A DNA stretch of 53,844 nt, from positions 1-53,844 of the forward strand of contig JBBDWJ010000014.1 of NCBI GenBank assembly GCA_040902925.1. Direction: 5' to 3'. This stretch comes from Bryobacterales bacterium. Its GTDB lineage: Bacteria; Acidobacteriota; Terriglobia; Bryobacterales; UBA6623. How positions within the stretch are numbered: the first letter of the stretch is position 1; every line of letters begins with the position of its first letter. The position numbers and the translations under genes were made by a program. Below, in pieces: positions 11,687 to 38,361 of the stretch. Under the pieces are notes generated by a model. The model saw nothing but the letters and a program-made list of their open reading frames with translations, was not told the origin of the DNA and made no database searches.

Positions 11687-14416
11687 ATGGGAGCGACAGC
11701 GAGCTATCAGCTAAGCCCAACCGAAGCCCTGGCGGAGTTGCGGAGCTTTCCGGAAGGTCTTTCGGATTCGGAAGCATCCGAGCGCCTGGCGATCCACGGC
11801 CCGAACGAGCTGCGGGAATTTCGCGCAACCAGCGTGTGGAAGATCGTCTGGCGGCAACTCAGTTCCATACTGCTGGTGGTCCTCATCGCGGCGGCAGCCA
11901 TTTCCGCTGCGTTGGGAGACCACGCGGATGCGCTGGCGATCGGTGCGATCGTGCTTCTCAACGTTTGCCTGGGTGCCCGTCAGGAGTACCGCGCCGAGAA
12001 AGCCATGGCGGCATTGCGAAAGCTGGCCGTCCCCACGGTGCGGGTTCGCCGCGGCGGCCACGTACGCGAGATATCCGCCCGCGATCTGGTGCCGGGTGAT
12101 GTGATTCTGATCGAAGCCGGCAACCGCATTCCCGCGGATGGGCGCCTGATCGAGAGCGCCAGTCTCCGCGTGCAGGAAGCCGCCCTGACCGGTGAGTCCG
12201 ACTCCGTCGAAAAGGCCGCCGAGGTCACCTGTCCCAAAGAAACGGAACTGGGGGACCGCCGCAACATGGTGTATGCGGGCACCACTGCTGTTTACGGCAG
12301 AGGGACTGCTGTCGTCATCGCGACCAGCATGCAGACCGAGCTGGGGCGCATCGCTCACCTGCTCCAAACTGTCGAACAGGAACCAACACCGCTCCAACGC
12401 CGGCTCGACCAACTGGGGAAGATGCTGGCGGCGGCGGCGCTGCTGATTGTGGCGGTGATTTTTCTTGTCGGGCTGTGGCGCGGCGAGGATCTGAAGGTGA
12501 TGCTTCTGACGGCGGTCAGCCTCGCCGTTGCCGCCGTGCCGGAGGGTTTGCCGGCGGTGGTGACAATCGCGTTGGCGCTCGGGTCGCAGCGAATGCTCAA
12601 GCGCCATGCGCTCATTCGCAAGCTCCCGGCGGTGGAGACGCTGGGCTCGGTTACCGTGATCTGCTCCGATAAGACGGGCACCCTTACCCAGAACCAGATG
12701 CGGGCCGAGATGCTGCACGTCGATGGGACGCGGCATCCTCTCACGTCCACTGAACCAGGAACCATCGAGGGAGCCCAGCAGAACGGCGCCGGCGCAAACC
12801 TTCCATCCTCCGCCGCGCTGCTTCTCTCCGCTGCCGCTCTTTGTAACGACGCGATCGCTGAGGAGGATCAACCCTCGGTGGGCGACCCTACGGAAGTGGC
12901 ATTGGTGGTGGCAGCCAACAGGCAGGGACTACTGAAAAATACGCTGGAACAAATGCTGCCGCGCGTGGCGGAGGCGCCTTTTGATTCTGACCGCAAGCGA
13001 ATGACAACCGTACACGCGTTGGCGGGCTCGACGGCTCCGCCTAACTGGCTTCGCGACGCTCTCAACGCGTTCGGCGAGCGCTCTGTCTCGCGTATAGCGT
13101 TCACCAAAGGCGCCACGGACGGCCTGCTGGAAGTTTCCAGCCATATTTGGCGGGAAGGCCGGGCGGAACTTCTCAGCAGCGAATGGAGGCGGCGGATCGA
13201 GGAAGACCACGACCGTCTGGCTCAAGAGGGCATGCGCATTCTGGGCGTCGCTTTCCGTCCCGTGGCTGAGGATGTTTGCGGCCCGGATGGGATCGAGCAG
13301 GGACTCATCTTTGTGGGACTGGTTGGGTTGCTCGACCCCGCCCGCCCCGAAGCGCGCGGCGCGGTCGAGGTCTGCCAGAATGCCGGCATCCGGGTGGTCA
13401 TGATCACCGGTGATCATCCTTTGACAGCGCGTCAGATTGGCAGGGAGTTGGGTATCGCCTCGGATGGCACTTTGCTGACCGGGCGGGACATCGAACGGTT
13501 GTCCGCCGCGGAACTGGAGAAAGTCGCCGCGACAACCGCCGTCTACGCCCGCGTACAGCCCGAGCATAAATTGCGAATCGTCGAGGCGCTGCAAAGCCAG
13601 GGCCAGGTCGTGGCGATGACGGGAGATGGAGTGAACGACGCCCCGGCCTTGAAACGAGCGGACATCGGCGTCGCCATGGGCATCACCGGGACCGACGTTG
13701 CGAAAGAGGCTTCCGGCATGGTTCTGCAGGACGACAACTTTGCTACCGTCGTGGCGGCTATTGAAGAGGGCAGAATCATCTTCGACAACATTCGCAAATT
13801 CATCCGGTACATGCTTTCGGCAAACTCAGGCGAGCTGTGGGTCATGCTCGCCGGGCCGTCCCTGGGGATGCCGCTGCCGCTGCTGCCGCTGCAGATCCTC
13901 TGGATGAACCTGGTGACCGATGGTCCGCCGGCTCTGGCGCTCGGCGTCGAGCGCGCCGAGCGTGGTACGATGCGCCGGCCCCCTCACCCGCCAGGGGAAA
14001 GCGTATTCAGCCGGGGTCTCGGAGCGGATATCCTTTGGATCGGCCTGCTGATGGGTGCGACGTCGCTGCTGGTAGGCTTTCTGCCATGGCGCGAAGGCCA
14101 TGCGGCCTGGCAAACCATGATCTTCTCGACCCTCACGTTCTCGCAGATGAGTCTGGCCCTCGCCGTGCGCTCCGAGCGGGATTCGTTTTTTTCGATTGGC
14201 CCGTTCACGAACAGAACCTTGTTGGTCGCGGTTCTGTTGTCGACGCTGTTGCAGATCGCCGTCATCTATGTCCCGTTCTTGCAGCAGATCTTTCGGACGA
14301 CAGCGCTCTCCGCGCGAGAACTGACGATCACCCTCGCGGCCGGCACGGTTGTCTTCTGGGCCGTGGAGTTGAGGAAGTGGCGTCTCCGCCAGCGGCAAGC
14401 ACCGCCGGTAACTTGA
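11687..14416 (+). CDS. Cation-translocating P-type ATPase (P2A, Ca2+-type)
   Basis: DKTGTLT phosphorylation site, [25 protein letters not shown]. Confidence 0.95.
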
Positions 14417-14632
14417 GCGGCCACTTAGGCTCGACTACCGCGGCATGGATCGGAACCAGGAAATTTCATCCCTTGACGTACTCGCTCAGTGACGGCACTC
14501 GAAGCGTGTATTTCGAATACGTGTGGTCCGCAAACATTCCGTTCCGGGTCGTGACTGGGCTCCTGCCGTCTACGCTAATGTGCACACTTGCCAAGCACGG
14601 CGCGCAATCGTCCGACATGGTGGAGGTACACT

Positions 14633-15472
14633 ATGCCAATGCAGATGACACGCCGGCACTGGGCCCAGATCGCCGCCGCCGCGGCCGTATCGGGCTGCGC
14701 AACTTCTCAGGAGACGTCCATGCTGATCGACAGCCCCAAGGGCAACTTTCAATTCCTCAGGGGCAGCGGGCCTTATTCGTCGGGGGCCATCGCCTCGACG
14801 GGGTTCGAAGTCGTCCACGCGATCTTCAATCCCTTGCCGAAGCTGTGGGACGCCTTCGAGATCATTGAGAAATACCTGGCGGCAGCGGGACGGCCGATCG
14901 AGGCGCTGTGCGGCATGGAATTGCGCATTCCCCAAGCGCTTTCGGTCGAGGCATTCAATGAATTCAATGCGCCCTATATCGAGCGCTTGAAGCAATGGGG
15001 AACGCATGTGGACGGGCTGAACCCGGTGGCTCGCACCAACGTTTCGTTAGAGGTGAACCCTGTGGCGGAGCCCTCGGTCTATGGATTCTGCTACACGGCG
15101 CCTTCGGACTTCACGGGCAAGACCTTTGTCATTGCCGGCGCCGGGGAACTCCGGTCTTCCGCTCTTGCGGCAGAGGAAATCGTGAGCAGGGGGGATGTCA
15201 GCGCCGAAGGTCTCAAGGCAAAAACCGAGCGCGTTCTCGGCATCATGACGGAACGCCTTCAAGGCCTGAACCTGGCTTGGAGCGACGTTACGCAGTCGAA
15301 CATTTACACGGTGCACAACATTTGTCCGTTGATGGAGCCGACCATCATGCCGGCGCTCCACGAGGGCGGACGGCACGGGGTTCGCTGGCACTTTTCCCGC
15401 CCGCCGGTGCTCGAGATCGAATTCGAGATGGACTTGCGGGGCGTTCAGCGAGAGATCACTGTAAGCACTTAA
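14633..15472 (+). CDS. CnbZ-like (2-amino-5-chloromuconate deaminase / RidA-related) protein with possible Tat-lipoprotein leader
   Basis: PYSSG, LCGMELRIP, NPVARTNV, RPPVLEIEFEMD motifs. N-terminal TRR...AVSGC. GGAGG RBS before 14633; alternative start at 14720. Confidence 0.75.
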   Translation: MPMQMTRRHWAQIAAAAAVSGCATSQETSMLIDSPKGNFQFLRGSGPYSSGAIASTGFEVVHAIFNPLPKLWDAFEIIEKYLAAAGRPIEALCGMELRIPQALSVEAFNEFNAPYIERLKQWGTHVDGLNPVARTNVSLEVNPVAEPSVYGFCYTAPSDFTGKTFVIAGAGELRSSALAAEEIVSRGDVSAEGLKAKTERVLGIMTERLQGLNLAWSDVTQSNIYTVHNICPLMEPTIMPALHEGGRHGVRWHFSRPPVLEIEFEMDLRGVQREITVST

Positions 15473-15503
15473 ACCGAAACTTGGCCCACGGGAAATACCT
15501 GAG

Positions 15504-17123
15504 TTATGGATTGGGCTGCAGCAACGCGAACGCCACCACGTTCGACCCCGCCGCTACCGCCACATACTGCTTGCCGCGCACTGCATACGTAATCGGAGAA
15601 GCGCTGATGCGGGCGCCGTTGTTGAAATGCCAGAGCGGCTTGCCCGTGGCGGCGTCGAGCGCTGTCAGGAATCCCTGGTCGTCGCCGGCAAAGATCAGCC
15701 CTCCCGCGGTCGAGACCAGTCCGGCTCCGTAATGCCGCGAGCCGACCTGCTCGTACTCCCACTGCATCTTGCCCGTGGCCGGGTCGAGCGCGCGCACGAA
15801 CATGCGCCAGGGGTCGGCCGGGCTCTCCACATACCCCGTGCCCATGAATCCAAACCCGCCGGGCCGGAACTCCTGTTTGGCCTTGTAGCTGATGCCGCAG
15901 CCTTCCTTCACAGCCAGATAAAACCAGCCCGTAGCCGGGTTGTACGCGGGCGACATCCAGTTGGTGGCGCCCGAAGTCGAGGGGCACACCAGGTTGCCCT
16001 GAATGGTCGGCTCGACGCCGGGCACGCGAATCGGACGCCCCTCGGCCGTCAGCCCCGTCGCCCAGTTCAGCTTGTCGATGAACGGGCTGCCGTGCAGGAA
16101 CTCGCCGGTGACGCGGTCGAGCACGTAGTAGAAACCGTTGCGGTCGGCATGCAGCAGAAGCTTACGCGGCTTACCATCGAACGGCGCATCGATCAGCACG
16201 GGGATCTCGACGGAATCCCAATCGTGAACATCGTGCGGCGTGAACTGAAAATACCATTTCAGCTTGCCCGTATCCGCGTCGAGAGCGACCACCGACTCGG
16301 TGTACAGGTTGTCGCCCAGGCGCGCGTCGCCATCGAAGTCCGGCGCGGGGTTGCCGATGCCCCAGTAGAGCAGGTTGAGCTGCGGATCGAAGCTGCCACT
16401 CAGCCAGGTGCCGCCGCCGCCGGTTTTCCACGAGTCGCCCGCCCAGCTTTCGTGACCGGGCTCGCCAGGCCGGGGGATGCTTTCCCAACGCCAGATGCGC
16501 TCGCCGGTCTTGGCGTCGTAGGCGTCGAGCCAGCCGTTGAGGCCATAGTCACCGGCCGCAACGCCCATCAGGATCTTGCCGTTGATAGCGAACGGCGCCG
16601 CCGGCGAGTAGTAGCCGTCTTCGACCTCGGCAACTTTCGCCTGCCAGACTTGGGCACCCGTCCTGGCGTCGAGCGCGACGAGATGGGCGTCGGGCGTGCC
16701 CACGTAGACAAGGTCGCCCAGCACGGCGACGCCGCGGTTCGGCCCGCGCTCGATGACGACGTTCTGCGGGGGCGCGGACTCACGCGACCAACGCCAGATG
16801 CTGCGGCCCGTGCGCGCGTCGATTGCATGGACCTCGTTCGGCTCACTGATATACATGACACCGTCGACCACCAGCGGAACGGTCTCGAGCCTACTGCCGC
16901 TGGGCACCGCGAAAATCCAGGCCGGCGCCAGCCCGGCGACGTTGCCGTGGTCGATCTGGTGAAGCGGGCTGTGGCGCTGTGAGTCGTAGGTGCGGCCGTA
17001 GGTCAGCCAGTTCTGGTCCGGGGGATCGAGCAAATCGTTGTACGCTACCTGCCCGCTCGCGGCGGTGCACCACAGAGCCGCCGCTACGATCACCTCGAGG
17101 AGTTTTGGGTTTGGATTTCGCAT
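15504..17123 (-). CDS. Periplasmic PQQ-type alcohol dehydrogenase-like quinoprotein (acidobacterial type)
   Basis: Signal peptide, NWLTYG...QRHSPL.QI, Trp-docking propeller repeats (ALDARTG..W), GDNLYT, FQFTPHDVHDWD, TNW.SPAY. Confidence 0.92.
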   Translation of the reverse strand: MRNPNPKLLEVIVAAALWCTAASGQVAYNDLLDPPDQNWLTYGRTYDSQRHSPLHQIDHGNVAGLAPAWIFAVPSGSRLETVPLVVDGVMYISEPNEVHAIDARTGRSIWRWSRESAPPQNVVIERGPNRGVAVLGDLVYVGTPDAHLVALDARTGAQVWQAKVAEVEDGYYSPAAPFAINGKILMGVAAGDYGLNGWLDAYDAKTGERIWRWESIPRPGEPGHESWAGDSWKTGGGGTWLSGSFDPQLNLLYWGIGNPAPDFDGDARLGDNLYTESVVALDADTGKLKWYFQFTPHDVHDWDSVEIPVLIDAPFDGKPRKLLLHADRNGFYYVLDRVTGEFLHGSPFIDKLNWATGLTAEGRPIRVPGVEPTIQGNLVCPSTSGATNWMSPAYNPATGWFYLAVKEGCGISYKAKQEFRPGGFGFMGTGYVESPADPWRMFVRALDPATGKMQWEYEQVGSRHYGAGLVSTAGGLIFAGDDQGFLTALDAATGKPLWHFNNGARISASPITYAVRGKQYVAVAAGSNVVAFALLQPNP

Positions 17124-17132
17124 CGTCGAGAT

Positions 17133-17936
17133 CTAACGCGCAAGCCGTGTCAAATACGCCAGCAGGTCACGAAACTCCAGCGCCGAGAGACGGCGATCGT
17201 AGTCCGCGGGCATCAGCGAGCGGTCCGCGATTTCCACCCGCGCGACCTCAGCGACGCTTAACATGTGCAGCCGCCCTTCTTCGCTCAAGAGCTGATAGGA
17301 GAAGTTGTGCCGGTTCTTGAGCACACCGCTAATCCGTTCTCCTCCGTTGGTCGTGATCGTGGCCGGTTCATATCCCTTCGGAGGATGCGGCTTCGGCACG
17401 GTTAACGCCTCGCGCAACGCCCGCAGCGACAGCTTTGCCGCCACATCCGACAGATCTGGACCGAGCAGTCCGCCTCGTCCGTGGACCATGTGGCAGCGGC
17501 CGCACTCCGCTGGCCCCCAGAACAGCGCGGCGCCGTTTTTGCGGTCGCCATCCGTCGGCAAGTCGGCGGCCCTGGCCCGCAGGCTCCGGACGTAGGCGAC
17601 AATTCGCCAAACGTCGTCCTCGGCGAGGCCCGTCGGTGGCATGCCCGTGCCGGGAATGCCGTTGCGCACCGCGTCGAACAGCTCGGCGTCGGTACGCCGA
17701 ACATAGGAGCGCGCCGCGCCCAGAGCCGGTGCGCGATCGCCGACCGCGCCATCCACTCCATGACACACGGTGCAGGTTTCGTTGTAGAGGTCACGTCCGC
17801 GACTTACGACCTCGGCTCCCGCGCCGAGCGGATTGTTTTCGGCGCCGTACGTGGAAACGCCGCCGGCACTCAAGCAGAGCAGTCCCGCAAGAGAGAGGAC
17901 AGCGATCCTTCGGCGTTGTCGATTGAGCACCAGCAT
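17133..17936 (-). CDS. Dihaem c-type cytochrome with putative haem-binding C-terminal domain
   Basis: CTVCH and CGRCH, GIPGTGMP, GPDLS, SLMP. Signal peptide after ATG 17936; ends 9 bp before the quinoprotein gene. Confidence 0.88.
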   Translation of the reverse strand: MLVLNRQRRRIAVLSLAGLLCLSAGGVSTYGAENNPLGAGAEVVSRGRDLYNETCTVCHGVDGAVGDRAPALGAARSYVRRTDAELFDAVRNGIPGTGMPPTGLAEDDVWRIVAYVRSLRARAADLPTDGDRKNGAALFWGPAECGRCHMVHGRGGLLGPDLSDVAAKLSLRALREALTVPKPHPPKGYEPATITTNGGERISGVLKNRHNFSYQLLSEEGRLHMLSVAEVARVEIADRSLMPADYDRRLSALEFRDLLAYLTRLAR

Positions 17937-18037
17937 GTCTCCGCTACCGGAGATTATGCCAGGGTTGGTCCCTCGAGGCTTTCCTCGAAGGGACCGGCCC
18001 TCGTTTTGGACAGTACGACGCCGCCTAGTGGCACAAC

Positions 18038-21000
18038 TCAAAAACGGTACTTCAGAGCGAACTGAATGATGCGGGCGTCGCCGGCCATGCCAGCCGCTCC
18101 TTGACTGCTGGTGCGGATCACACCGAATGTGTTCGGTGCGGTGATCGCGATCCCCGGAGCCCCCAGGTTCACGTGATTGAACAGATTGAAGAACTCGGCG
18201 CGGAACTGCAAGGCGTTCGACTCCGAGAAGCGAAACTCCTTATTCGCCGAGAAGTCCACCTGGGCCAAGCCCGGCAGATAGATCGGCATTCGCGAAGCGT
18301 TGCCAAACCGGCCGTCGGGCGGGCGCGTGAATGCGGCCGTGTTGAACCAGCGATCTCGCGAGCGGTCTCCACGCGAAAGCTGCGCTTGCTGGCCCGCGAC
18401 CACGTCGGGGCGCGAGCTGACGCCCGTGACGGTGATGTCTCCAACGCCGGAGAGCGTCGTGGCGAAGCCGGTCTGCAAGGTTGTGATCGTCGATACCTGC
18501 CAGCCGCCCAGCAGGGCTCGCGTCACCGCGGATGTTGCGCCGCGGAAAAACGGAATGTCGTAGATCATCGATACCGACATGCGGTGAGCGATGTCGAATG
18601 TGGCCGGCGCTTTCTCGGCCGAGAGATTGAAGAAATCCTGCAATCCGCCAAGAAACGTGCCGCCGCCCACCGAGCTGATATCGGCGTTGCTGAGGGCCTT
18701 CGACCAGGTGTAAGCGCCGAGGAACGACAGGCCGCGGCCCACGCGCCGCTCGGCTTTGAGTTGCAGCGAATGGTAGATCGAGTGGCCGATCGCCTTGGTC
18801 ACGCCAATGCGATCGAAGCCCTGAAAGGGCCGCCGCGAGGCCAGCGACGGCGCGCCAGCCGGCACGATCGGCTCCAGCGGACGGTTGCCGTCAAACGTCA
18901 TCGTCAGGCCGGTGCCTTTCGATCCGACGTAGCCGAGATCGACGAGCACGTCGAGCGGCAGCTTTTTCTGCAGGGTCAGGTTCCACTGCTGCGTGTATGA
19001 CGTGTGCTGGTCAGGGTCGAATCCCCCTGCGCCGAACAAGCCCGCGCGGGTCTGCCCGCTGCCCTGAAAGGCGGTTTCGACATCGATGGGGTTGTTGAAC
19101 GTTCCCGTGAAGGAGAACGTCTTGACGATCGGCGGGTTCAGCGTCAGCGTGGTCCAGGTGTTGGTGATCTCCGGCGTGAAATAGACGCCGTAGCCGCCGC
19201 GCACTACGAAATCCTGCGACCAGGGCGTCTTGTAAGCGAAGCCGAACCGCGGGCCGAAGTCGTTCTTGTCGCTGTTGACCAGGTTGGTGGGGACGCCCGT
19301 GGTATCGGCGATATCGGGGAAGCCTTTGAACCATTGCGCCGACGGCGTGAAGCCCGGAACGGCGCCATTGAGGCCGAAGTTCACCGCGGTCCCTCGTTGG
19401 GACGGCGCCGTGAAGTACTCATACCGCAGGCCCCAGTTGAGCGTCAGGTTCGGCGTTGCCTTCCAGTCATCCTGGAAATAGTAGGCGTGCCAGAAGTTGT
19501 TCATGCGCGTGGCGAACGGTTCGACGCTGACTTCGGCGCTGGTGGCCAGGCCCAGCAGGAAGGTGGCGAACTGGTGCTCGCGGACCTGCGCGGCGCCGCC
19601 CGACGCAGTCCGGCCATCGAAAGTGAAGCTGCCGCGCGGATTCACCGATTCGTCGAAGGTCCAGTTGCGGCGGGCGAACAATCCCCCGAATTTGAACGAA
19701 TGGCTGCCGCGAATCCAGGTCAGGTTGTCGCTGAACTGCCAGAGCTGATTGAGCCGGTCACGCGGGCCGATGCCGCGCACGGTCGGCAACGTATAGCCCG
19801 CGCCGAAGCCCGGAGCGCCGAAATTGCGGGGGTCAGTCGAAACGCCCGGGATGCCGATCTTGTTAGCGATATCGAGTTCGGGGTTGTCTGTGGTGCCGAA
19901 AAACTCGTGCTCAAAAAACCGGTGCCAGCCGATGCGCGCTTCATTGATCAGCGTGGATGAGAAGATATGCACGTCGGCCAGGCTTAGGTTTTGCGCCCGG
20001 CCTGTATTGCCGCGCGTGTCCCAAGTGAAGTTAGGCACCGTGTCGTCGCTTTGTTCGTTGTACATATAGCTGCCGTACATCGAGTTCTTCTCGGTGAACC
20101 GGTAGTCGGCGCGGCTGATGTACTGGTCCTGGTCGATCGGCGCCGAGGCAGCCGGCGGACGATAATTCACCGCAGCTTCATTGGCGTTCGGTGCGGGCAC
20201 GTAGTCGCGCAAAAAAGTGCTGGCGTAGTTCCTGATGCGGGAGCCGGGAATCTGGTTGTTGGCAAATGGCTGCCCTGTGGCCGGGTCGAAAATCGTGCCC
20301 GAAAAGGCGGAGAAATCGCCTGTGCGGTAGGCCGTGGGCGGAATGAACAGGTTCTGCTGCCCTTGGCCGGCGATGAGGCGGCCTGATTCCCAGTTGAAGA
20401 AAAAGAATGCCTTCTCCTTCACGATGGGGCCGCCGAGGTTCGCGCCATACTGATTGCGGTTCAGCCTCGCTGGTTTGGCGTCTGGAGAATACGGCGTGAA
20501 CGCAGCAACCGCCGAGAACGCATCATTGCGATTGAACCACCAGGCGCCGCCGTGAAAGGCGTTCGTGCCAGCTTTCGTCATCAGGTTGACCTGTCCGCCG
20601 GGAGCTCCACCTACGTCGGAAGAATAGGTAGACGACTGCACTTTGAACTGTTCGATGGCGTCGATCGAGGGCGAGAAGCTAAAACTATAGCTGTCGAGAT
20701 CCATCGCCTCGATGCCGTCATAGTAGAAGCGGTTCTGCGTGTCACGCGCGCCGTTGGCCGACATGCCGACGGCCTGCCCCACCGAGCCGCGCAAGCGCCG
20801 CACGGTGATCGAGCCGGGCGTGCCGGGGTTGACTCCCGGCGTCAGCAGCGCAAGCTGCACGAAGGACCGGCCATTGAGCGGCAGCTCGACGACCTTCTGG
20901 CTGTCGATGACGGTGCCGACCGTGGCGTCTTCGGTCTGCAGGTTCAACGCGCCCGCCTCCACCGAGATCGTCTCGGTTACCTCGCCCACTCGGAGCACGA

Positions 21001-21331
21001 TATTCAGGCGCAGCACCTGATCGACATTGAGCGCGAAGTTCGTCACCTCGGATTTCTGGAACCCGGCGGCTTCGACCGCGAGCCGGTACGTGCCGATCGC
21101 CAGGAACGGGAACTCGTAGTGGCCGACCTCGTTGGTCGTCGTTGTGCGCGTCTGGTTCGTCTGGACGCTAGTAATCGTTACGTTCGCAGCGGCGACGACC
21201 GCTTCGGTCGGGTCGGTGACCGTTCCGACTACTTTGGCCGTGATCGCCTGCGAATAGGTTCTCGCGGGGATCAGGACAACAAGCATGGCCAACACCATGC
21301 ATAGGAGCAATACATACTTCCTGTTTATCAT
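18038..21331 (-). CDS. TonB-dependent receptor with N-terminal carboxypeptidase-regulatory-like domain (Oar-like)
   Basis: Signal peptide, GTVTDPT..V, LPLNGRSF.QL, FQDDWKATPNLTLNWGLRYEY, DFGPRFGFAY, C-terminal RIIQFALKYRF. Confidence 0.95.
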   Translation of the reverse strand: MINRKYVLLLCMVLAMLVVLIPARTYSQAITAKVVGTVTDPTEAVVAAANVTITSVQTNQTRTTTTNEVGHYEFPFLAIGTYRLAVEAAGFQKSEVTNFALNVDQVLRLNIVLRVGEVTETISVEAGALNLQTEDATVGTVIDSQKVVELPLNGRSFVQLALLTPGVNPGTPGSITVRRLRGSVGQAVGMSANGARDTQNRFYYDGIEAMDLDSYSFSFSPSIDAIEQFKVQSSTYSSDVGGAPGGQVNLMTKAGTNAFHGGAWWFNRNDAFSAVAAFTPYSPDAKPARLNRNQYGANLGGPIVKEKAFFFFNWESGRLIAGQGQQNLFIPPTAYRTGDFSAFSGTIFDPATGQPFANNQIPGSRIRNYASTFLRDYVPAPNANEAAVNYRPPAASAPIDQDQYISRADYRFTEKNSMYGSYMYNEQSDDTVPNFTWDTRGNTGRAQNLSLADVHIFSSTLINEARIGWHRFFEHEFFGTTDNPELDIANKIGIPGVSTDPRNFGAPGFGAGYTLPTVRGIGPRDRLNQLWQFSDNLTWIRGSHSFKFGGLFARRNWTFDESVNPRGSFTFDGRTASGGAAQVREHQFATFLLGLATSAEVSVEPFATRMNNFWHAYYFQDDWKATPNLTLNWGLRYEYFTAPSQRGTAVNFGLNGAVPGFTPSAQWFKGFPDIADTTGVPTNLVNSDKNDFGPRFGFAYKTPWSQDFVVRGGYGVYFTPEITNTWTTLTLNPPIVKTFSFTGTFNNPIDVETAFQGSGQTRAGLFGAGGFDPDQHTSYTQQWNLTLQKKLPLDVLVDLGYVGSKGTGLTMTFDGNRPLEPIVPAGAPSLASRRPFQGFDRIGVTKAIGHSIYHSLQLKAERRVGRGLSFLGAYTWSKALSNADISSVGGGTFLGGLQDFFNLSAEKAPATFDIAHRMSVSMIYDIPFFRGATSAVTRALLGGWQVSTITTLQTGFATTLSGVGDITVTGVSSRPDVVAGQQAQLSRGDRSRDRWFNTAAFTRPPDGRFGNASRMPIYLPGLAQVDFSANKEFRFSESNALQFRAEFFNLFNHVNLGAPGIAITAPNTFGVIRTSSQGAAGMAGDARIIQFALKYRF

Positions 21332-21785
21332 CTACTTTTACCTCGCAACCAAAAGACCCAAAACAACGACCCTCCCCGGAGGGCGGAGTCAGTTCCCGAT
21401 CGTTAGAGCGGGACGCAGGAGACCAATCCGGAACCCCTGATGAAGCTTCAAGCCCTGTCGAATGCTGAGAACAGCCAAGGCCGCAAGATTCCTCAGCGAT
21501 CGGAGAGCTATCCCGGTACAATCCGCCCTAAAGACGTCGTTGCGGATAACCGGGCTTCGTGATTTTTGACGGTGAAAGTTCTGGGTTCAGCGCGGCAGAG
21601 CGGTACTGAGCTCGGCCTGAATGAAGTGTGGCGCGAACCGCATTCTGCCTCCTTTCGCGTCTCAAAGGAAGCCGCTCGAAGGGCGTCTGCAGTCCGTAAT
21701 AAATCCAGTCTATACCGCCCTGGAGCTCAAGCGTCAAGACAAAATGGGCGGTTTAACCCGTAAGGCGGATGTCCCAATATCGGGA

Positions 21786-22760
21786 TTAACGTGGTGTGTC
21801 GCCGGTCAAGGGGGCGGCTTGCGCGGCAGGCCGGGCATGTTCGCGGATGTGCTCTGGCAGACCAGTGGCGCGGCCCAGGTAGTTGAACTCCTCGGCATGG
21901 CGCAACCCGTGCTTGAGTCCCACCGCGGCGGCGAGGTCTTCGAGGTAAGCGCGAATCAGTTGGACGGTGGAGTTCTCGTTGAGCTCGCGCAGCAGCTCAT
22001 GCGGCCTGCCTGCGAGATCGAGACGCTGGCGCGTTTGAAGCGCATAACGACTGTTCGAAGTCTTGAGTTCCAGTATGGCCCGCACCTTGCGGTCGAACGT
22101 CGAACCGATGTCCATATGCCGCAATTGGGCCTGCCCTTCGCCGCCCTCTCGCGGCCGGTAAGGGCGATGAGGAATGTAGAAATAATATTCGCGAGCAGCA
22201 TACCCGCCATAGCCGATGTAGGTCATCTCCTGAACGAAATAGCCGCCTCCGCCGTAAGGCGCCTCTTCCGCCATGCGGCCCACGCGGTAAACGTCGTCGT
22301 CATTGAGGTAATGCGCATACCAATCAGGGAAAAACATCGTCTGCGGCTTATAGAATCGCACCATCGTCATGACCTGATTTCGCATCTCGCTGCTGGAGAT
22401 GTAGGCCAGCTCGCCGCTCTTGTGCCCGAGGTTGAGCACTTCCTTGACGCCGAGCTGCCGCGCGGCGCGTTCACCCTCCTCATTGTTGGCCAGGCGCGTG
22501 GCGGCTGGTCCAAGCCCGGTCGAGTCCTTCTCGTCGTTGCCGAACTGCAGGACATAAACGGGCCGGCCTTGCTCGATCATTTTTGCCAGCGTGCCGCCGG
22601 CGCCGAAAAGGTAGTCGCGGGCCGAAGCGGTAATGACCAGCACGGCATTCGGCTCGGGTTTTTCCGCGGCCGCTGCCGCCGGCGCGAAGACGCCAAGCGC
22701 GGCCAGAGCGCTCAACAGTCCTCGCCGCAGGGTGTAGGTGCTCATTTGCCATCCACTCAT
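21786..22760 (-). CDS. PIG-L/LmbE deacetylase-fold protein A, metal-binding motifs degenerate; Tat-like leader
   Basis: VLVITASARDY (in place of HxDD), GGTLAKM, NDEKD, E..RAA..LG, K...I, AEEF. LRRGLL leader. ATGA overlap with the upstream paralog. Confidence 0.8.
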   Translation of the reverse strand: MSGWQMSTYTLRRGLLSALAALGVFAPAAAAAEKPEPNAVLVITASARDYLFGAGGTLAKMIEQGRPVYVLQFGNDEKDSTGLGPAATRLANNEEGERAARQLGVKEVLNLGHKSGELAYISSSEMRNQVMTMVRFYKPQTMFFPDWYAHYLNDDDVYRVGRMAEEAPYGGGGYFVQEMTYIGYGGYAAREYYFYIPHRPYRPREGGEGQAQLRHMDIGSTFDRKVRAILELKTSNSRYALQTRQRLDLAGRPHELLRELNENSTVQLIRAYLEDLAAAVGLKHGLRHAEEFNYLGRATGLPEHIREHARPAAQAAPLTGDTPR

Positions 22761-23689
22761 AACTTGGGCACGGCTCGCTCGAGAGCGTGAGGCGGAACGG
22801 CCTCACCGGGACCAACGTAGTTGAACTCTTCGCCGTGCTGGAAACCGTGCTTCTCACCCATCGTCGCCGCAAGTTGATGGACCCAGGCGCGCGCCAGGGC
22901 CTGAACCAGCTTCTCGTCGAGCGGCTCCAGAAGCTCGCTCGATCGTACGGCGGCGTTCAAACGCGCGCGCAGGACCTGCGCCCGAAACCGGTTGCGCGTG
23001 CGCAGCATCGCCAGAGCCGTGGCCTTGGCGTCGAGCACGCTGCCGATATAGACGCCGAGAAGGCGCGCGCTCTGCTCGCCGCCTTCCGCGCGGCGGTAAG
23101 GCCGGTCCACTGGATAGTAGTAGACTTCCGGAACGCTGTGAGGCGTCAGATCCATGCGCGCCAGCTCGACTGCGAAAGTAGAGGCGCCGCTGTACCCCCA
23201 AGCCTCCTCGGCCATGCGGCCCACAAAATAAATGTCCCAGTCGGGCTGAAAGTGAACGTAGGGGTCAGGAATGAAAATCTTCTTCGGGCGCAGGTGGCGG
23301 ATCAGGGCGAACAGTTGGTTCCGCATTTCCGTGCTCGAAACGTAGCCGATCTCACCCGACTTATGCTCCATGTAGACCGCGTCGGCGAAACCCAGGTACT
23401 CAGCGGCAGCCTTGCCTTCCTGAATGTTGGCCCGTCGGGTCTCGGCGGGTGACAGTCCCGCGGATTCCTTTTCGTCGTTGCCGAAATGAGCAATGTGAAT
23501 TTCGTATCCATCCAGCGCCATTTGGGCCAGGGTCCCGCCGGCGCCGATCAGGTAGCCGGCTGAATCGGCGGTAACCACGAGAACTTTCGCGGGGACCGCG
23601 GTTTCGGCGCGAAGCGGCGCCGGACTCGGCAGCATCATGAGCCCAAGCAGTGCCGCGCCGTGCAGCAACGTCGGTCGAAGGTCGGTCAT
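22757..23689 (-). CDS. PIG-L/LmbE deacetylase-fold protein B, metal-binding motifs degenerate; signal peptide
   Basis: VLVVTADSAGY, GGTLAQM, NDEKE, EGKAAAEYLG, PDPY, GEEF. Clearly paralogous to A. Confidence 0.8.
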   Translation of the reverse strand: MTDLRPTLLHGAALLGLMMLPSPAPLRAETAVPAKVLVVTADSAGYLIGAGGTLAQMALDGYEIHIAHFGNDEKESAGLSPAETRRANIQEGKAAAEYLGFADAVYMEHKSGEIGYVSSTEMRNQLFALIRHLRPKKIFIPDPYVHFQPDWDIYFVGRMAEEAWGYSGASTFAVELARMDLTPHSVPEVYYYPVDRPYRRAEGGEQSARLLGVYIGSVLDAKATALAMLRTRNRFRAQVLRARLNAAVRSSELLEPLDEKLVQALARAWVHQLAATMGEKHGFQHGEEFNYVGPGEAVPPHALERAVPKL

Positions 23690-23788
23690 TGCGTCACCGG
23701 ATTCTCTGCCAACTCTACGCTATCCGTCCAAGTCAGGCATTGTTTCATCCGGACCCTTTGATAGTCTAGGATAGCTGGCATTGCGTAG

Positions 23789-24733
23789 ATGACGACCCGG
23801 CCGATCAACAGAAATCGTTGGATCGCAGCGCTTGTACTCTGCGGCAGCGTTTGCGCTGTTGCCGCGCCGTTGCCCTTGGGAGACATTCCGCCGGGGAAAG
23901 CATTCCTGGTCATCCAGCCGCATCACGATGATCACACCTGGCAGTATGGGTTCGGCGGTCTGATTGCAAAGATGGCCGACGCCGGCTGGCGCGGAACCTA
24001 TGTACGCGTGACGAACGACGAGAAGGACGGCCCGCACGGTTGGGCCAAGAATGACCTCGTCAACGAGGCCGAAACTCTCGAAGCCACCAAAAACCTCGGC
24101 ATCGAGCGGGTCGTCAGCCTCAACTGGCGGAACGATCACATGGACTCGGTCCCCATCAACGAGCTGCGGGCGCAGCTCATCCTCTTGATTCGTCAGTTAC
24201 GGCCCGACGCCGTGATGGCCTACAACCCCTGGGGACACTATGACCGCAACCCTGACCACCGGATCGTCGCTCGCGCGGTGGGGGAAGCCGTATGGCTGGC
24301 AGGTTACGCCAATGCCTACCCCGAGCATTTCAAGCTCGGGCTGGAGCCGCATCGCGTGCCTTATCGCTACTACTCGCAGCGCGGCGACTACGGCAAAGGT
24401 TACGAGCCCAACATTGCGATCGAGCTGAACGAGAGCCAGGTGGCGCGTAAAGCAAAATCCTATTGGCTGCATCGCAACGTGCGGCTGAGGCCCGAAACCG
24501 CGCGCGGCATCCGTCAGGCGCTCGAACAGCGCGGCCTGACAATCCCTGAGTTGGAAGCACTTGACGATGAGCAAGCGACCCAGAAACTGCAGGAATGGTC
24601 CATGGAATGGATCTCCGCGAAGCGGGGTAGTGAAAACGGCGTGAAGTACGCCGAGGTCTTTTATTTCATGGACGAGTGGCACGATCTGCCGGGGCTGCGC
24701 GAGTACCTGGATAAAAACGCGGTGGCGAAATGA
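23789..24733 (+). CDS. PIG-L/LmbE family deacetylase C, metal ligands retained; signal peptide
   Basis: IQPHHDDH, GGLIAKM, TNDEKD, RPDAV, NPDH, YAEVF. Confidence 0.88.
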   Translation: MTTRPINRNRWIAALVLCGSVCAVAAPLPLGDIPPGKAFLVIQPHHDDHTWQYGFGGLIAKMADAGWRGTYVRVTNDEKDGPHGWAKNDLVNEAETLEATKNLGIERVVSLNWRNDHMDSVPINELRAQLILLIRQLRPDAVMAYNPWGHYDRNPDHRIVARAVGEAVWLAGYANAYPEHFKLGLEPHRVPYRYYSQRGDYGKGYEPNIAIELNESQVARKAKSYWLHRNVRLRPETARGIRQALEQRGLTIPELEALDDEQATQKLQEWSMEWISAKRGSENGVKYAEVFYFMDEWHDLPGLREYLDKNAVAK

Positions 24734-25734
24734 AAGGGCATCGTCGCTTCTGCCGTGCCGCGAATCTCTCCGGAAGGTCTATCCGTCTTCGCCTGACCTT
24801 GTTCCGGCTCGGCATTTGCGCCGCTGCTCTACTCGCCATGTTCGTCGTTCCTGGCATACACGCCGAGGCCCTGCCGCTCGCAAAGCTTCCCCGCGGCAAG
24901 GTCTTCATGGTCATCGAGCCTCACCACGACGACCACACGACCGATTACGGAATGGGCGGCTTGATCGCGCGCCTCATCGACGAAGGCTATACCGGCTATT
25001 ACGTACGAGCGTCGAACGACGAGAAGGATGGCCGTCATGGCTACCCGCTGAACGACATGATCAACCTCAAGGAGAGCCGGGCGGCTACGAAGATTCTGGG
25101 CATCGACGAGGTGATCAGCCTGAACTGGCGCAACGACTATATGGATCCGATTCCGCTGCAGGAGTTGCGCGGCCAGTTGATACTGCTGATCCGCAAATAC
25201 CGGCCCGATGTCGTGCTGGGTCACGATCCCTGGGCGCATTACGACCGCAACCCGGATCATCGCAAGGTAGCGCGGGCGCTGGCGGAGGCTTTTTGGATGG
25301 CTGGTCAAGCCAACGTCCACCTCGAGCACCTGCGTTTAGGATTGAAGCCGCACCGCGTGCCCTACCTTTTCCTCAAGGCGCGCGTGGATTACGGACGCGG
25401 TCATTGGCCCAATGTGGCGGTCGAACTGACCGAATCGCAGGTACGCCGTAAGCAGAGAGCGTATTCCGCGCATCGCAACGTCTACGCCAACCCCGCCACC
25501 GCGGGTGCGGTGCGGCGCCAGTTGGCCGGCGAGAACCTGGTTGTGCCCGAGATCGAGGGTCTCAGCGACCAGGCGGCCGCCGTGCTGTTTGAGGAATGGC
25601 ACATGGACTGGATCTCGGGCAAACGCGGCGCCGAAAACGGCGTTCGTTACGCCGAGGTGTACTGGTTCCGCGATGAATTCGATCATCTGCCGGGGCTGGA
25701 GGAATACATCCGGCGGAATGCGGTTCAACAATGA
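24730..25734 (+). CDS. PIG-L/LmbE family deacetylase D, metal ligands retained; signal peptide
   Basis: IEPHHDDH, SNDEKD, RPDVV, NPDH, YAEVY. ATGA-coupled to C and very similar to it. Confidence 0.88.
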   Translation: MKGHRRFCRAANLSGRSIRLRLTLFRLGICAAALLAMFVVPGIHAEALPLAKLPRGKVFMVIEPHHDDHTTDYGMGGLIARLIDEGYTGYYVRASNDEKDGRHGYPLNDMINLKESRAATKILGIDEVISLNWRNDYMDPIPLQELRGQLILLIRKYRPDVVLGHDPWAHYDRNPDHRKVARALAEAFWMAGQANVHLEHLRLGLKPHRVPYLFLKARVDYGRGHWPNVAVELTESQVRRKQRAYSAHRNVYANPATAGAVRRQLAGENLVVPEIEGLSDQAAAVLFEEWHMDWISGKRGAENGVRYAEVYWFRDEFDHLPGLEEYIRRNAVQQ

Positions 25735-25766
25735 GGGTCAAGTCGACGATGCTCGCTGGAGGCCAA

Positions 25767-26678
25767 ATGATAACGAGGCTCGCCGCAATGTGTTTGGCGG
25801 CTATTGTGCTAGCGGCCGGTCTCTGCGCTCAGCCGCAGCCGTCGAGTGGGAACCGCGTCGTCCTTGTGATCACCGCGGACGCGAGCGACTACATTCTGTC
25901 CGCCGGCGGGGCCATCGCCTCCATGATCGAAGACGGCGCGACGGCATATCTCATCCGCACCACGAACGATGAGAAAGACTCCTGGGAGTTGTCTCCGGAA
26001 GAAACGGCGCGCCGCTACAGTGACGAGAGCGAGCAGGCCGCCAAAATCCTTGGCATCCAGGAAGTGATCTCGCTTGGCTACCGCGCGGGCGAGCTCGCTG
26101 CGGTCTCCCACACCGAGCTGCGAGACCGGCTGATGTTCTACGTCCGGCTTTACAAGCCCGCAGTGCTATTCCTTCCGAATCCCCATGCGGAGTACGTGGA
26201 AGTCCTCGACCGGTTTTACACGGGCAAAGCCGCCGAAGAGGCGCAGCGCGTGGCCGCGCTCGAAAACTTTCAGCCGCCGTTTTCGGAGGTCGGGCTGACG
26301 ACACACATCATCGGGGAACTGTACTACTACGCTCAGCCGTTCGACCCGCGCCGGCGCGAGCCGGAAAGCACTCCGACGTTTGTTCCTCAGCCGAAGACCG
26401 TCGGCATTTCAGCAGCGTTCGATAAAAAACTGCGCGCCGCTCGGGCCCTCTACACCGCGAACTACAGCATGGCGATGAACATCAAGAAGCGTCTCGACAA
26501 CACCGGCCGACGGCTGCCGCTACTGGACGCCGTCGACAGCGAGTCGGTTAATCAACTTGTGGAGATCAATCTTAGGAAGCTAGCAGAGATCGCCGCCCGC
26601 GACACATCCTACGAGCTGGCCGAGGAGTTTCACTACGCCGGGGTGGAATACCAGATCCCGTCGAGCTATTTGAAATAG
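25767..26678 (+). CDS. PIG-L/LmbE deacetylase-fold protein E, metal-binding motifs degenerate; signal peptide
   Basis: VLVITADASDY, GGAIASM, TNDEKD, ESEQAAKILG, AEEF. GGAGG RBS before ATG 25767; the track start 25731 is also possible. Confidence 0.8.
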   Translation: MITRLAAMCLAAIVLAAGLCAQPQPSSGNRVVLVITADASDYILSAGGAIASMIEDGATAYLIRTTNDEKDSWELSPEETARRYSDESEQAAKILGIQEVISLGYRAGELAAVSHTELRDRLMFYVRLYKPAVLFLPNPHAEYVEVLDRFYTGKAAEEAQRVAALENFQPPFSEVGLTTHIIGELYYYAQPFDPRRREPESTPTFVPQPKTVGISAAFDKKLRAARALYTANYSMAMNIKKRLDNTGRRLPLLDAVDSESVNQLVEINLRKLAEIAARDTSYELAEEFHYAGVEYQIPSSYLK

Positions 26679-26694
26679 GTCGAGCTATCTGAAA
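26660..26694 (+). repeat. 16-bp direct repeat duplicating the 3' end of PIG-L gene E
   Basis: gtcgagctatttgaaa (26660-26675) and gtcgagctatctgaaa (26679-26694). Confidence 0.7.
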
Positions 26695-26817
26695 GCCAGG
26701 AGGCGCCGAATGACCCACGAGGTTTTCGCGTCAGGAGAGCCATGTCGAGGCGGCCCAAGACGGCGCCGGAGGCCGCTGCCGCATCAACAACGCCTGCTGC
26801 TCGACCTCACGCCCAGT

Positions 26818-28212
26818 TCAGCGAGTTGACCCCGCGCCTACAGGCACTTGAATGTATCGCTCCGCCGGCGGCGCGAAGAAGACGAGTACCCGGCCGGCGA
26901 GCTTTTCTCGACTGTCCGGTGACCCTGCCAGATGAAACGATGTTTGGGCCAGAAAATGGGTGGCTCCCCGGGGAACGTGATAGTGAAGCAGTGATGGCGC
27001 CGGGATCTCCATCATCGCGTCTTGTTCACTCCAGTCATCAGGCGATGCAAGCGCGCCGGCAGACCCCACGAAATGAGCGGGCCTTTCCTCAGAAAGCGAA
27101 GCCTCGTTTCCTGGCTCTCCACGAAATCGCGGCTTTCGCCAGCGGATCCTGCCGTTTCCCCGCAGCGAAGAATCCGTCTCGAAGACGAAGTAGATATGCC
27201 GGTATCTCTGCGGTGGAATCGCCACTTCGAGATGGAACGGCTGCGCGGCATCCAGAGTGATCGGGCCAGTATCGTATACAGGTTCCGCGTTTCCCTGAAC
27301 GCTGAGGCCGCTTTGCTGCTCCCAATTGGCGGGCTTATCGAAATCCTGATTTGCAGCGATCTCTTCCCAGCTCGGTCTTGACGATTCCACGCCCTCTGGA
27401 GGGACTTCCAGGCCGGCAACCCACGCCACTCCGTTCAGCAACGCCTTTCGGAAGTTGTCATCGCGATAGTTGTGATGGGAATGAGCGCCGGAAAAGCCAA
27501 AGCCGCGCCCACCAGCCGGGCGTTCGTAGGCCCACGCGAGCGTGTGAAGGTCACCACGAAGGACGCTTTCGCGAACGCCGGGATTACCGGAGCTAGGGCC
27601 GTCCGCGCGGAGCAAAACGGTCAGCGGAGGCCGCGCCTGGAGGATCGGAGTGACGCCCTTCAAACCGGGCGCGAAACGCATATTGAAATACCACTCATCG
27701 TAGACCGAGAATGGCTGCAGACCGTTTGCCGCTGCATGAACGGGAAAATTCGCGAACTCGGGAGCCCAATCCGGGTTTACCGACAGTCCCCTTTCGTAAA
27801 CCCCGCCGATCCACTCCCTGACTGCGTCCGCGGCGCGACCCGGAGGCGGTTCGAGGGCGAAGTGAATCAGGGCGATACCCACTCCACGATTGGCTAGGGC
27901 GCTTACTTGATCGAGATGATCAAGAGCGGCATGAGCGCTGCCATCGCAATCGATGACCAGGGCATCGGCATCCGCGAAAGTATCCGCATCGGGCCAGCCT
28001 TTGTCGGCGATGACGGTTTCGAGTTGAGGCCATTGTTGCTTGAGGGACCGGGCCAGCAGCAGGAGTCCGGCCCTGTGTTCGTGCATCCCATAGCCGTGAC
28101 TAGGAGTGCCCGGGATGAAAATGATCTTCGTGGGGCCCGCGGCGACAAGTGGCACGGTCAGCCACAACAGAATCGTGAAGCGCAAAAACACGATGCCTCT
28201 CAGAATCCTCAT
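26818..28212 (-). CDS. Secreted ThuA-like (class I glutamine amidotransferase-like fold) protein with a C-terminal beta-rich domain
   Basis: GTPSHGYGMHEH, GVGIALIHFA, DEWYFNM, AWAYERPAGGRGFGFSGAH..N.R..LLNGVAW. Signal peptide from ATG 28212. Confidence 0.8.
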   Translation of the reverse strand: MRILRGIVFLRFTILLWLTVPLVAAGPTKIIFIPGTPSHGYGMHEHRAGLLLLARSLKQQWPQLETVIADKGWPDADTFADADALVIDCDGSAHAALDHLDQVSALANRGVGIALIHFALEPPPGRAADAVREWIGGVYERGLSVNPDWAPEFANFPVHAAANGLQPFSVYDEWYFNMRFAPGLKGVTPILQARPPLTVLLRADGPSSGNPGVRESVLRGDLHTLAWAYERPAGGRGFGFSGAHSHHNYRDDNFRKALLNGVAWVAGLEVPPEGVESSRPSWEEIAANQDFDKPANWEQQSGLSVQGNAEPVYDTGPITLDAAQPFHLEVAIPPQRYRHIYFVFETDSSLRGNGRIRWRKPRFRGEPGNEASLSEERPAHFVGSAGALASPDDWSEQDAMMEIPAPSLLHYHVPRGATHFLAQTSFHLAGSPDSREKLAGRVLVFFAPPAERYIQVPVGAGSTR

Positions 28213-28475
28213 CAACGGTTCTCCGAAGGTTCCAGCCGAGCTGCTGATGATCCTATCACGGTTTCTGAATGAGCCAGATCTCGTCCGCACGCCGAAGCCG
28301 TCGCTGGCAAACCGCTCAAGATCTGGTCTGTCCGTTCTAGAATCGCCCCCTGCCGCAGCGCTGGTTGGGAGATCAGCGGCCGCGCCATGGTGGGACGAGG
28401 AAACTGCTTGATAAGGCGATTCGACGGCCGTACCGCAGACTAGAGGGTGGCCGCGCCGTTTCCGCGGGATCTAAT

Positions 28476-32335: not shown

Positions 32336-32390
32336 AGTTGAGAGTTCGCTTCGTTTCAAGGTGGGGATACCCACAGAGAGAGGGTCAAAG

Positions 32391-35453: not shown

Positions 35454-35459
35454 ACCCCG

Positions 35460-35501
35460 CCAGGGTGGCGTCGCGCCCCTCGACGCCACCCTGGATCTTT
35501 T
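35460..35501 (+). terminator. Intrinsic terminator / stabilising hairpin after the TonB receptor
   Basis: Perfect 14-bp stem ccagggtggcgtcg / cgacgccaccctgg, 7-nt loop, followed by atctttt. Confidence 0.75.
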
Positions 35502-35589
35502 GGCCCGGCCTGGGAATCGTCCGGGACAACCCGGCGCGGCGGCGCAGCGGATGCGTGCATCGTGCCACAGTTGGAGAAGAGGTGCTTTG

Positions 35590-36654: not shown

Positions 36655-36729
36655 GTTTCGACTTCAGAGCACGGGCCCAAAGCGCCGCGCCGGTGGGCGG
36701 CTGTTTCACCACGCCCGTCAATCGCGAAT

Positions 36730-37128
36730 GTGGAGGCGCAATTGGAAGCCCAAGTAATCCGGTATAGCGATATCGCTCCGATGATCTTTCCTACCAGCCG
36801 GGAAACGCGCGTCTACGCCGGCGCCCGCGGCCTGCCGGCCCAGCGATTCACGATGGGATACGTTGTCGTCGAGCCTGACGGCTCCGTTCCACTTCACCAT
36901 CACGATCAAGAGGAAGTCTACTTCCTTCTCGACGGTGTAGGGGAGATTGATATCGACGGCAAAAGGTTTCGGATGGAGCCGCTTTCGGCCGTGTACATCC
37001 CCTCGCAAAAACCACACCAGTTCCGCAATGTGGGCCAGTCGCCGATGCGGTTTCTGTTTGTATACGCGCCGGCGGAAGAGGTTTCCCACTGGGCGGAGGA
37101 ATCGGCTCGCGGCCGCAGCTCTACTTGA
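36730..37128 (+). CDS. Cupin domain protein
   Basis: PLHHHDQEEVY and YIPSQKPH.F.N cupin motifs. Confidence 0.85.
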   Translation: MEAQLEAQVIRYSDIAPMIFPTSRETRVYAGARGLPAQRFTMGYVVVEPDGSVPLHHHDQEEVYFLLDGVGEIDIDGKRFRMEPLSAVYIPSQKPHQFRNVGQSPMRFLFVYAPAEEVSHWAEESARGRSST

Positions 37129-38353: not shown

Positions 38354-38361
38354 GTAAGTCC

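Follow-up and report, generated by a model that had tools for sequence, protein, structure and literature searches.

When genes for an outer-membrane receptor, two redox proteins, a deaminase-like protein and five deacetylase-like proteins stand side by side, do they encode the steps of one pathway, or were they brought together separately? The question is raised by positions 14,633 to 26,678 of a 53,844-nucleotide stretch from a Bryobacterales bacterium of the Acidobacteriota (assembly GCA_040902925.1, contig JBBDWJ010000014.1), in which a CnbZ-like gene, a pyrroloquinoline quinone (PQQ)-type dehydrogenase (quinoprotein), a dihaem cytochrome c and a TonB-type receptor adjoin an array of five PIG-L-family genes (A to E). 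The whole stretch, hereafter the window, is an entire 53.8-kb contig of a 6.39-Mb genome (383 contigs, 91% complete). The original prediction was of a single locus by which an N-acylated compound is imported, deacylated, oxidised and deaminated. We put at roughly 65% the probability that the 12-kb stretch instead comprises four juxtaposed, separately inherited modules whose products act in the periplasm or outer membrane, and which are neighbours only in this species-level lineage.

Orthologues of each part were sought in 40 relatives, up to 20 kb around each was retrieved, and every locus was searched with all window proteins; four further loci were added through a related-locus search with PIG-L A. 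The cytochrome c, quinoprotein and CnbZ-like genes were detected (tblastn, E ≤ 1e-8) in none of the 13 loci carrying an orthologue of PIG-L A (21786-22760, minus strand), of which eight offer at least 7 kb of downstream DNA, one (L006) offers 5 kb and four (L007, L009, L041 and L042) end within 2.2 kb. Orthologues of the CnbZ-like gene (14588-15472, plus strand, likely start near 14633-14639) adjoin neither a quinoprotein nor a TonB-type receptor gene at any of ten loci, and their neighbours vary by genome: a low-molecular-weight phosphatase; a DUF420 protein with an ABC-2 transporter; a sugar-phosphate isomerase-like protein; RidA with a metallo-beta-lactamase. One of these loci (L018) has a receptor fragment 7.8 kb distant, and another (L013) has a PIG-L paralogue at 1.1 kb and a weak cytochrome-like match at 7 kb. 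Orthologues of the quinoprotein gene (15504-17123, minus strand; 66-76% identity) have a cytochrome c gene directly upstream in 11 of 11 loci, as the predicted pairing of these two proteins would have it, and in none of the 11 is a receptor adjacent, that of one locus (L022) lying 7 kb off, or a CnbZ-like or PIG-L gene present. Among seven loci with an orthologue of the receptor gene (18038-21331, minus strand), four have other neighbours, two end at the receptor and one (L033) shows the order receptor-cytochrome-quinoprotein. The flanking P-type ATPase and FAD oxidoreductase gave no matches in a genome of the same genus (G001).

Since the parts lie at separate places in relatives, the stretch reads as a patchwork of independent modules and not as one pathway locus. 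Synteny comparison had been proposed as the means of refuting the single-locus claim, and it found the parts positionally independent (0 of 13, 0 of 10 and 0 of 11 loci). Within the genome that carries the window, five further cytochrome-quinoprotein pairs are present (six in total), none with an adjoining receptor, along with two additional PIG-L loci and another CnbZ paralogue, which is signal-less. Because dozens of TonB-type receptors and several cytochrome-quinoprotein pairs are found per genome, chance neighbourhoods that resemble pathways are to be expected.

The gene adjacency is real in the species-level lineage and not an artefact of single-sample assembly, because contigs from another study's run, about 93% identical, bridge the junctions between CnbZ-like and quinoprotein genes (15229-16152) and between quinoprotein and cytochrome genes (16974-17932), and span a 454-bp gap plus PIG-L A and B (21326-23625). 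In a second sample an identical contig bridges 21329-22003. Gene order, strands, gaps and family assignments, mapped from an open reading frame listing with Pfam and NCBIfam scans (the Pfam scan covering all genes from 9859 to 30302), were as originally described. The predicted export signal on every product was also recovered, in that 10 of 10 products from 14588 to 28290 carry a K/R-flanked hydrophobic stretch at the N-terminus, which is a crude rule of our own and not the output of a signal-peptide predictor. Likewise, the Pfam scan detected no glycoside hydrolase or inner-membrane transporter within 14633-26678, a P-type cation ATPase (11687-14416) lying just outside. The description of the locus as resembling a polysaccharide utilization locus (PUL) without glycosidases holds only in part. 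As in the SusC/SusD PULs of Bacteroidota, a predicted TonB-dependent outer-membrane transporter stands beside exported carbohydrate-active-enzyme-like genes; unlike them, the locus has no SusD-like gene or glycoside hydrolase (Pfam, 9859-30302), no sensor and no inner-membrane transporter, and its genes do not stay together as a set in relatives.

Several observations weigh against wholly separate inheritance. At L033 a receptor of the same orthogroup (66% identity) precedes a paralogous cytochrome-quinoprotein pair (37% and 46% identity). Three loci have a receptor after PIG-L genes: in the window; on contig C174 of the same genome, where PIG-L genes are followed by one unknown gene and then a receptor; and at L006, whose downstream receptor is merely 31% identical to that of the window. 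This supports a loose association of TonB-type receptors with PIG-L genes, although the three receptors are no more than about 30% identical to one another. At the genome level, profiling of 201 genomes of the order at a threshold of E ≤ 1e-60 for A-type PIG-L proteins yielded 28 carriers. A CnbZ-family gene is present in 27 of these 28 and in 12 of 173 non-carriers, in a count that pools signal-bearing and signal-less paralogues, and the quinoprotein orthogroup is present in 23 of 28 and 7 of 173, respectively. Both control genes co-occur with the array much less: a paralogous quinoprotein was found in 25 of 28 carriers against 44 of 173 non-carriers, and the flanking P-type ATPase in 8 of 28 against 20 of 173. 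Thresholds for co-occurrence were chosen after the first 41 genomes had been seen, and 4-11 candidates were scored per genome in the order-level searches.

Because kinship makes the genomes non-independent, contrasts were drawn on a tree of RpoB sequences (715 columns) from 80 genomes selected among the 201, with at least one per genus represented among the RpoB matches listed. The tree includes 19 of the 28 carriers; the omitted ones are four more from genus g12, G146, and four of a third family without a listed RpoB. Array state changes at least nine times on this tree, with only six contrasts on supported branches. The CnbZ-family gene goes in the same direction as the array in 4.7 of the six and in the opposite direction in 0.0 (median p 0.0625), and the quinoprotein in 3.6 and 0.1 (p 0.125), while the controls share the direction in 2.5 and 2.1 (p 0.5). 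The co-occurrence trend is real but under-powered and not significant, is partly shared by the controls, and is regarded here as suggestive.

Among the alternatives, the one that survives best, which we regard as possible but doubtful, is that receptor, cytochrome c and quinoprotein form a functional operon of their own with no relation to the PIG-L genes, in which the receptor imports the substrate of the dehydrogenase or a cofactor beyond the cell's own synthesis, either PQQ or a lanthanide chelate. The three genes share a strand, with no terminator-like site between them on it. The cytochrome gene (17133-17936, minus strand) ends 9 bp from the quinoprotein gene and lies 101 bp from the receptor gene if translated from the internal ATG at 17936; its reading frame is open to a TTG at 18041, and use of that codon would give a 4-bp overlap. 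On this arrangement the receptor is probably co-transcribed with the pair under the patchwork reading as well. The receptor order at L033 also speaks for this alternative, the same orthogroup heading a different pair. Against it, the receptor adjoins none of the 11 orthologous quinoprotein loci and none of the five other pairs in its own genome, and the quinoprotein is absent from four of the five informative receptor-orthologue loci. Promoter-like and terminator-like sites across the region did not exceed background (16 terminator-like sites found against 12.9 expected; one promoter match against 2.8 in shuffles). The 454 bp that separate the receptor gene from PIG-L A (21332-21785) contain one hairpin with a T-run at 21384-21369 and no Rfam family; no Rfam family was found in the span from 14633 to 26678, the sole match in the window being a tRNA at 55-112.

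The receptor is a probable Acidobacteria-type TonB-dependent outer-membrane transporter of 1097 aa with a CarboxypepD_reg domain (76 bits) and an OMP_b-brl_4 barrel (PF25183, 755 bits), and the genome has 57 loci of this kind; its Plug domain scores 16.5 bits (E 0.013), below the 23.9 cut-off. This part of the protein can nonetheless be aligned with the plug of PqqU from E. coli (25% over 106 residues, E 3e-4). PqqU (YncD) is described in excerpts of PMC12124388 as a TonB-dependent PQQ importer, and the window receptor would answer the same need, that of a PQQ user that does not make PQQ. The similarity is limited to the plug, the window receptor being 1097 aa long with an extra N-terminal domain. 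PqqC, a marker of PQQ synthesis, was not found in this 91% complete genome, so the cofactor is probably scavenged. PqqC exceeded the cut-off in merely two of 41 genomes searched, these two serving as positive control, and PqqE-like matches were all far below cut-off. The genome, with its nine or more quinoprotein homologues, also yielded no full-length counterpart of E. coli PqqU, only plug-domain matches (best E 1e-7 over 143 residues); within the Acidobacteria, PqqU-type importers are reported only in Vicinamibacteria, according to the same excerpts (PMC12124388). These points favour cofactor import by the receptor, which nevertheless remains a minority reading. Strong quinoprotein homologues number 2-23 per genome across this genome and the 40 relatives.

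The quinoprotein belongs to the methanol/ethanol family of PQQ-dependent dehydrogenases (TIGR03075, 511.7 bits against a cut-off of 480.05) and also matches TIGR04528, acido-empty-quinoprotein group A, with 569.1 bits, below the 650 cut-off. A vicinal Cys-Cys disulphide near PQQ is a feature of this family. The best structural match is the quinoprotein ethanol dehydrogenase 6ZCV/6ZCW (E 1e-110), which we take to be PedH. In alignment with 6ZCV the Cys-Cys pair is absent, PCCDVINRG being matched by VVIERGPNRG, and Asp replaces Glu in the GGEFG stretch. HDWDS aligns with HDGWDFDG, so that an Asp stands two residues past the catalytic Asp (DWD against DFD), a position given in the excerpted text of PMC10875860 as the lanthanide signature of PQQ alcohol dehydrogenases. 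Lanthanide-dependent quinoprotein alcohol dehydrogenases (6ZCV/6ZCW; XoxF with XoxG) share the eight-bladed PQQ propeller, the extra Asp and a dedicated c-type cytochrome; they differ from the window protein, in which the vicinal Cys-Cys is missing, Asp takes the place of a metal-binding Glu, the partner is a dihaem TIGR02603 protein and six pairs occur in the genome. The partner cytochrome c has Cytochrom_C and TIGR02603 haem-binding domains with two CxxCH motifs (CTVCH and CGRCH) and is likely the electron acceptor of the adjoining dehydrogenase. By analogy with its family, the PQQ/lanthanide-type dehydrogenase would oxidise an alcohol or sugar-type substrate and hand the electrons to this cytochrome.

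Two further quinoprotein genes were observed. On contig C257 of the same genome (8793-10261) a paralogue is matched as two abutting segments with their junction at 9104, which may reflect a frameshift or an assembly error, and the cytochrome gene there follows the dehydrogenase instead of preceding it. The window also encodes a 693-aa PQQ dehydrogenase of another type (51593-53674, minus strand; PF01011, 696 bits over the full 595-position model; 29% identity to the quinoprotein at 15504-17123).

The most unusual part of the stretch is the conserved, divergent PIG-L array, with B (22757-23689) and A on the minus strand and C (23789-24733), D (24730-25734) and E (25731-26678) on the plus strand. 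All five proteins exceed the PF02585 gathering score (39.9-75.3 bits against 28.2; E 7e-11 for A, 7e-10 for B and 8e-21 for C). In the HxD1D2 + H motif of the family, two His and D2 bind the metal and D1 is the general base, as set out in excerpts of PMC4101496. C and D, which are 57% identical, keep this motif (PHHDDH...NPDHR), as do six of six orthologues of each (12 of 12). The corresponding stretches read TASARD...NDDDVY in A, TADSAG...PDWDIY in B and TADASD...VLDRF in E, both His being absent from these three and from all of their orthologues (0 of 11, 0 of 8 and 0 of 6, or 0 of 25). The A, B and E types each carry conserved motifs of their own. A, B and E have the PIG-L fold, yet on their motifs they ought not to be annotated as deacetylases. 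The proposal that the PIG-L proteins are deacylases is thereby narrowed to C and D, which keep the metal motif that A, B and E lack.

Several lines of evidence bear on how the five proteins act. The whole B-A | C-D-E array recurs in four further loci (L001, L006, L007 and L041) from at least three genera and two families, and partially elsewhere. Stop and start codons overlap by 4 bp at B-A, C-D and D-E, and these overlaps recur in relatives. A scan of 1.84 billion representative proteins with PIG-L A gave 406 matches at E ≤ 1e-3 and 19 at E ≤ 1e-30, including two- and three-domain proteins. Among them P0001 is a natural fusion of B-type and A-type domains, and P0018, P0151 and P0152 are natural fusions of C-type and E-type domains in which Pro-rich linkers replace the second signal peptide; the E-type domain of P0151 and P0152 retains AHADD...NLDH. 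Complex prediction with mature D and E gave an ipSAE of 0.75, whereas the best of three controls scored 0.00, with partner pLDDT of at least 86 and at least 88% of contacts shared between runs; at the mark used, 116 of 157 solved complexes pass, as do 2 of 215 mismatched pairs. The predicted interface involves the C-terminal tail of D. Overlapping codons, fusions and complex prediction together suggest a hetero-oligomer. Weighing against this, the D+E prediction may pass merely through likeness to the homo-hexameric deacetylase structures described in excerpts of PMC9779004.

The best solved relatives of all five proteins are the archaeal N,N'-diacetylchitobiose deacetylases (Dac, family CE14; 3WL4, 3WE7 and 8BGN), with E 2e-17 for C to 3WL4 and E 7e-9 for A, and the His-Asp-His triad of Dac is kept in C and D. 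In hexameric Dac, as described in excerpts of PMC9779004, N- and C-terminal extensions of one subunit enter the substrate site of its neighbour, and the predicted D-E interface likewise uses the tail of D. Dac differs in being a cytoplasmic homo-oligomer of one active subunit, whereas the array encodes five secreted paralogues, three of them without the metal site; the paralogues are also distinct from Dac in their length of about 300 residues, a conserved NDEKD motif and extra C-terminal helices. We propose that the array would form a hetero-oligomeric periplasmic de-N-acetylase, with the zinc site in C and D and with A, B and E as non-catalytic subunits that complete or shape the substrate site, as neighbours do in the archaeal hexamer. 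A GlcNAc-type oligosaccharide or glycoconjugate would be a candidate substrate. Full-text search found no CE14 hetero-oligomer with pseudoenzyme subunits in print.

An unlikely alternative is that A, B and E are active enzymes with a different catalytic arrangement, the array comprising five independent hydrolases for different substrates. The motifs particular to each type would fit such activity, and orthologues that are 52-73% identical and free of stop codons indicate selection; moreover, one Asp of each canonical motif persists in most A, B and E proteins. This alternative is opposed by the loss of the metal-binding His pair in every orthologue of the three types, together with the general-base Asp, and by the account in PMC4101496, as excerpted, that every characterised LmbE-like enzyme uses HxDD + H. 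Fusions and translational coupling point towards physical association, which also counts against independent hydrolases.

Other arrangements of PIG-L genes and domains were observed. In L002 (G012:C1:66000-85900) the array is split at 13900-18900, where about 5 kb with a HigB-like toxin gene separates B and C, and an IS1-like transposase fragment lies downstream of PIG-L A. In L003 and L004 (G007 and G016, genus g7) a lone PIG-L A orthologue directly follows genes for OtsA/OtsB-like proteins, that is, trehalose-6-phosphate synthase and phosphatase, and a GH15 gene. P0010 (713 aa), P0013 and P0014 each carry two or three PIG-L domains in tandem on one chain; the metal motif is kept in the first domain, and those after it are increasingly degenerate. 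A gene for a ThuA-like exported protein (26818-28290, minus strand; PF06283, E 3e-10) converges on PIG-L E; it was ruled out as a partner of the array, none of the 13 orthologous PIG-L A loci giving a tblastn match to it.

The CnbZ-like gene, which converges on the quinoprotein gene with 31 bp between stop codons, appears to be a stand-alone gene. Its product matches the profile of CnbZ, 2-amino-5-chloromuconate deaminase, over nearly its full length and above cut-off (NF049982, 273.3 bits against 220; residues 52-290 on model positions 1-238 of 239). CnbZ proper is cytoplasmic and acts in a chloronitrobenzene pathway. The N-terminus of the window protein, TRRHW...AAAAAVSGC, carries a twin-arginine motif and a lipobox-like Cys. 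Eight of eight close orthologues, including that of the window, have the twin-arginine motif, three of eight have the lipobox Cys, and more distant paralogues are without a signal. No solved relative of the profile was found by sequence (best E 0.88). In an AlphaFold model (pLDDT 77, pTM 0.75) the best folds among deposited structures were chorismatase (E 1.6e-5), Toblerone-fold cyclic amide hydrolases and, AmnE among them, RidA/YjgF proteins of a single domain; the matches are modest, with TM-scores of 0.44-0.46 on the query and 0.5-0.64 on small targets. The protein would thus resemble other aminomuconate deaminases, such as AmnE (6IZH), in its RidA/YjgF-like repeats, and because it is built of such repeats, imine or enamine deaminase-type chemistry is likely for this Tat-exported member of the CnbZ family. 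It differs from CnbZ in its conserved twin-arginine export signal, and no aminophenol or chloronitrobenzene meta-cleavage genes, nor other aromatic-amine degradation genes, were found among up to six neighbours in the ten orthologue loci or in the window. The predicted deaminase with a Tat/lipoprotein-like leader therefore stands as regards family and twin-arginine motif, less so as regards the lipobox, and it has no CnbZ pathway context; 'deaminase-like' is a fair description, and the same function as CnbZ should not be assumed.

One orthologue of this gene, at L013 (G008:C1:4839500-4859400), lies amid metallo-beta-lactamase-fold, RidA (L-PSP), HpcH-aldolase-like and canonical PIG-L genes. 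A 616-aa gene without an assigned family ends 4 bp ahead of it, and the locus is 28 kb from the five-gene PIG-L array of the same genome.

It is quite unlikely that array, quinoprotein-cytochrome pair and Tat-exported CnbZ-like protein are steps of one periplasmic route encoded at dispersed sites. Such a route would begin with de-N-acetylation of an imported amino sugar or a similar compound, go on to its oxidation and end with the release of ammonia from the enamine or imine so formed, its genes being scattered in most genomes and collected here. The strong genome-level co-occurrence relative to the two control genes supports it, and the direction of the independent RpoB-tree contrasts, the export signals that the crude rule assigned to all products and the RidA-like fold of the CnbZ-like protein all fit it. 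Furthermore, the same-genus genome G001, whose RpoB is 96% identical, lacks an A-type PIG-L protein and a quinoprotein orthologue and has a CnbZ-family gene of the signal-less type only. Opposing this, physical linkage was seen in no relative examined, and in a second family PIG-L and CnbZ-family genes are linked in none of seven carriers, lying on different contigs or 420 kb apart. In two genomes (G008 and G038) the array and a CnbZ-family gene occur with no orthologue of the window quinoprotein, while genus g6 has the quinoprotein without array or CnbZ. The sign tests, with six pairs, miss 0.05, and the controls lean the same way. A unified pathway is not supported by position and is weakly suggested by co-occurrence. 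Least likely of all is the joint case, in which a hetero-oligomeric PIG-L complex with three pseudoenzymes, a lanthanide-type quinoprotein with its cytochrome and a Tat-exported RidA-like CnbZ homologue would together form a genome-dispersed deacetylate-oxidise-deaminate route, without a glycoside hydrolase, for an imported amino sugar or related substrate.

Elsewhere in the window, 30788-42108 (plus strand) is a more PUL-like locus with a FAD-binding oxidoreductase, a second TonB-type receptor, two Gfo/Idh/MocA oxidoreductases, two cupins, two 3-keto-disaccharide hydrolase (DUF1080) proteins and a PQQ_2 beta-propeller, a gene content that suggests oxidative processing of sugars. The 'putative glucoamylase' domain PF10091 is present in a 1497-aa protein (42128-46621, minus strand) and in a 448-aa protein (50202-51548, plus strand).

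Taken as a patchwork of separately inherited modules, the stretch illustrates that adjacency in a single acidobacterial genome can mislead annotation. The retention of many PQQ-type dehydrogenases, with PqqC in two of 41 genomes and no full-length PqqU here, sharpens the question of how the cofactor enters or is used. The piece most worth experiment is the PIG-L array, with two intact and three degenerate CE14 paralogues that are conserved, translationally coupled and found in natural fusions. If the hetero-oligomer is true, the array would stand as a clear example of pseudoenzyme subunits within a family of carbohydrate esterases, and it would offer a handle on the periplasmic processing of N-acetylated glycans by abundant soil and sediment Acidobacteriota.

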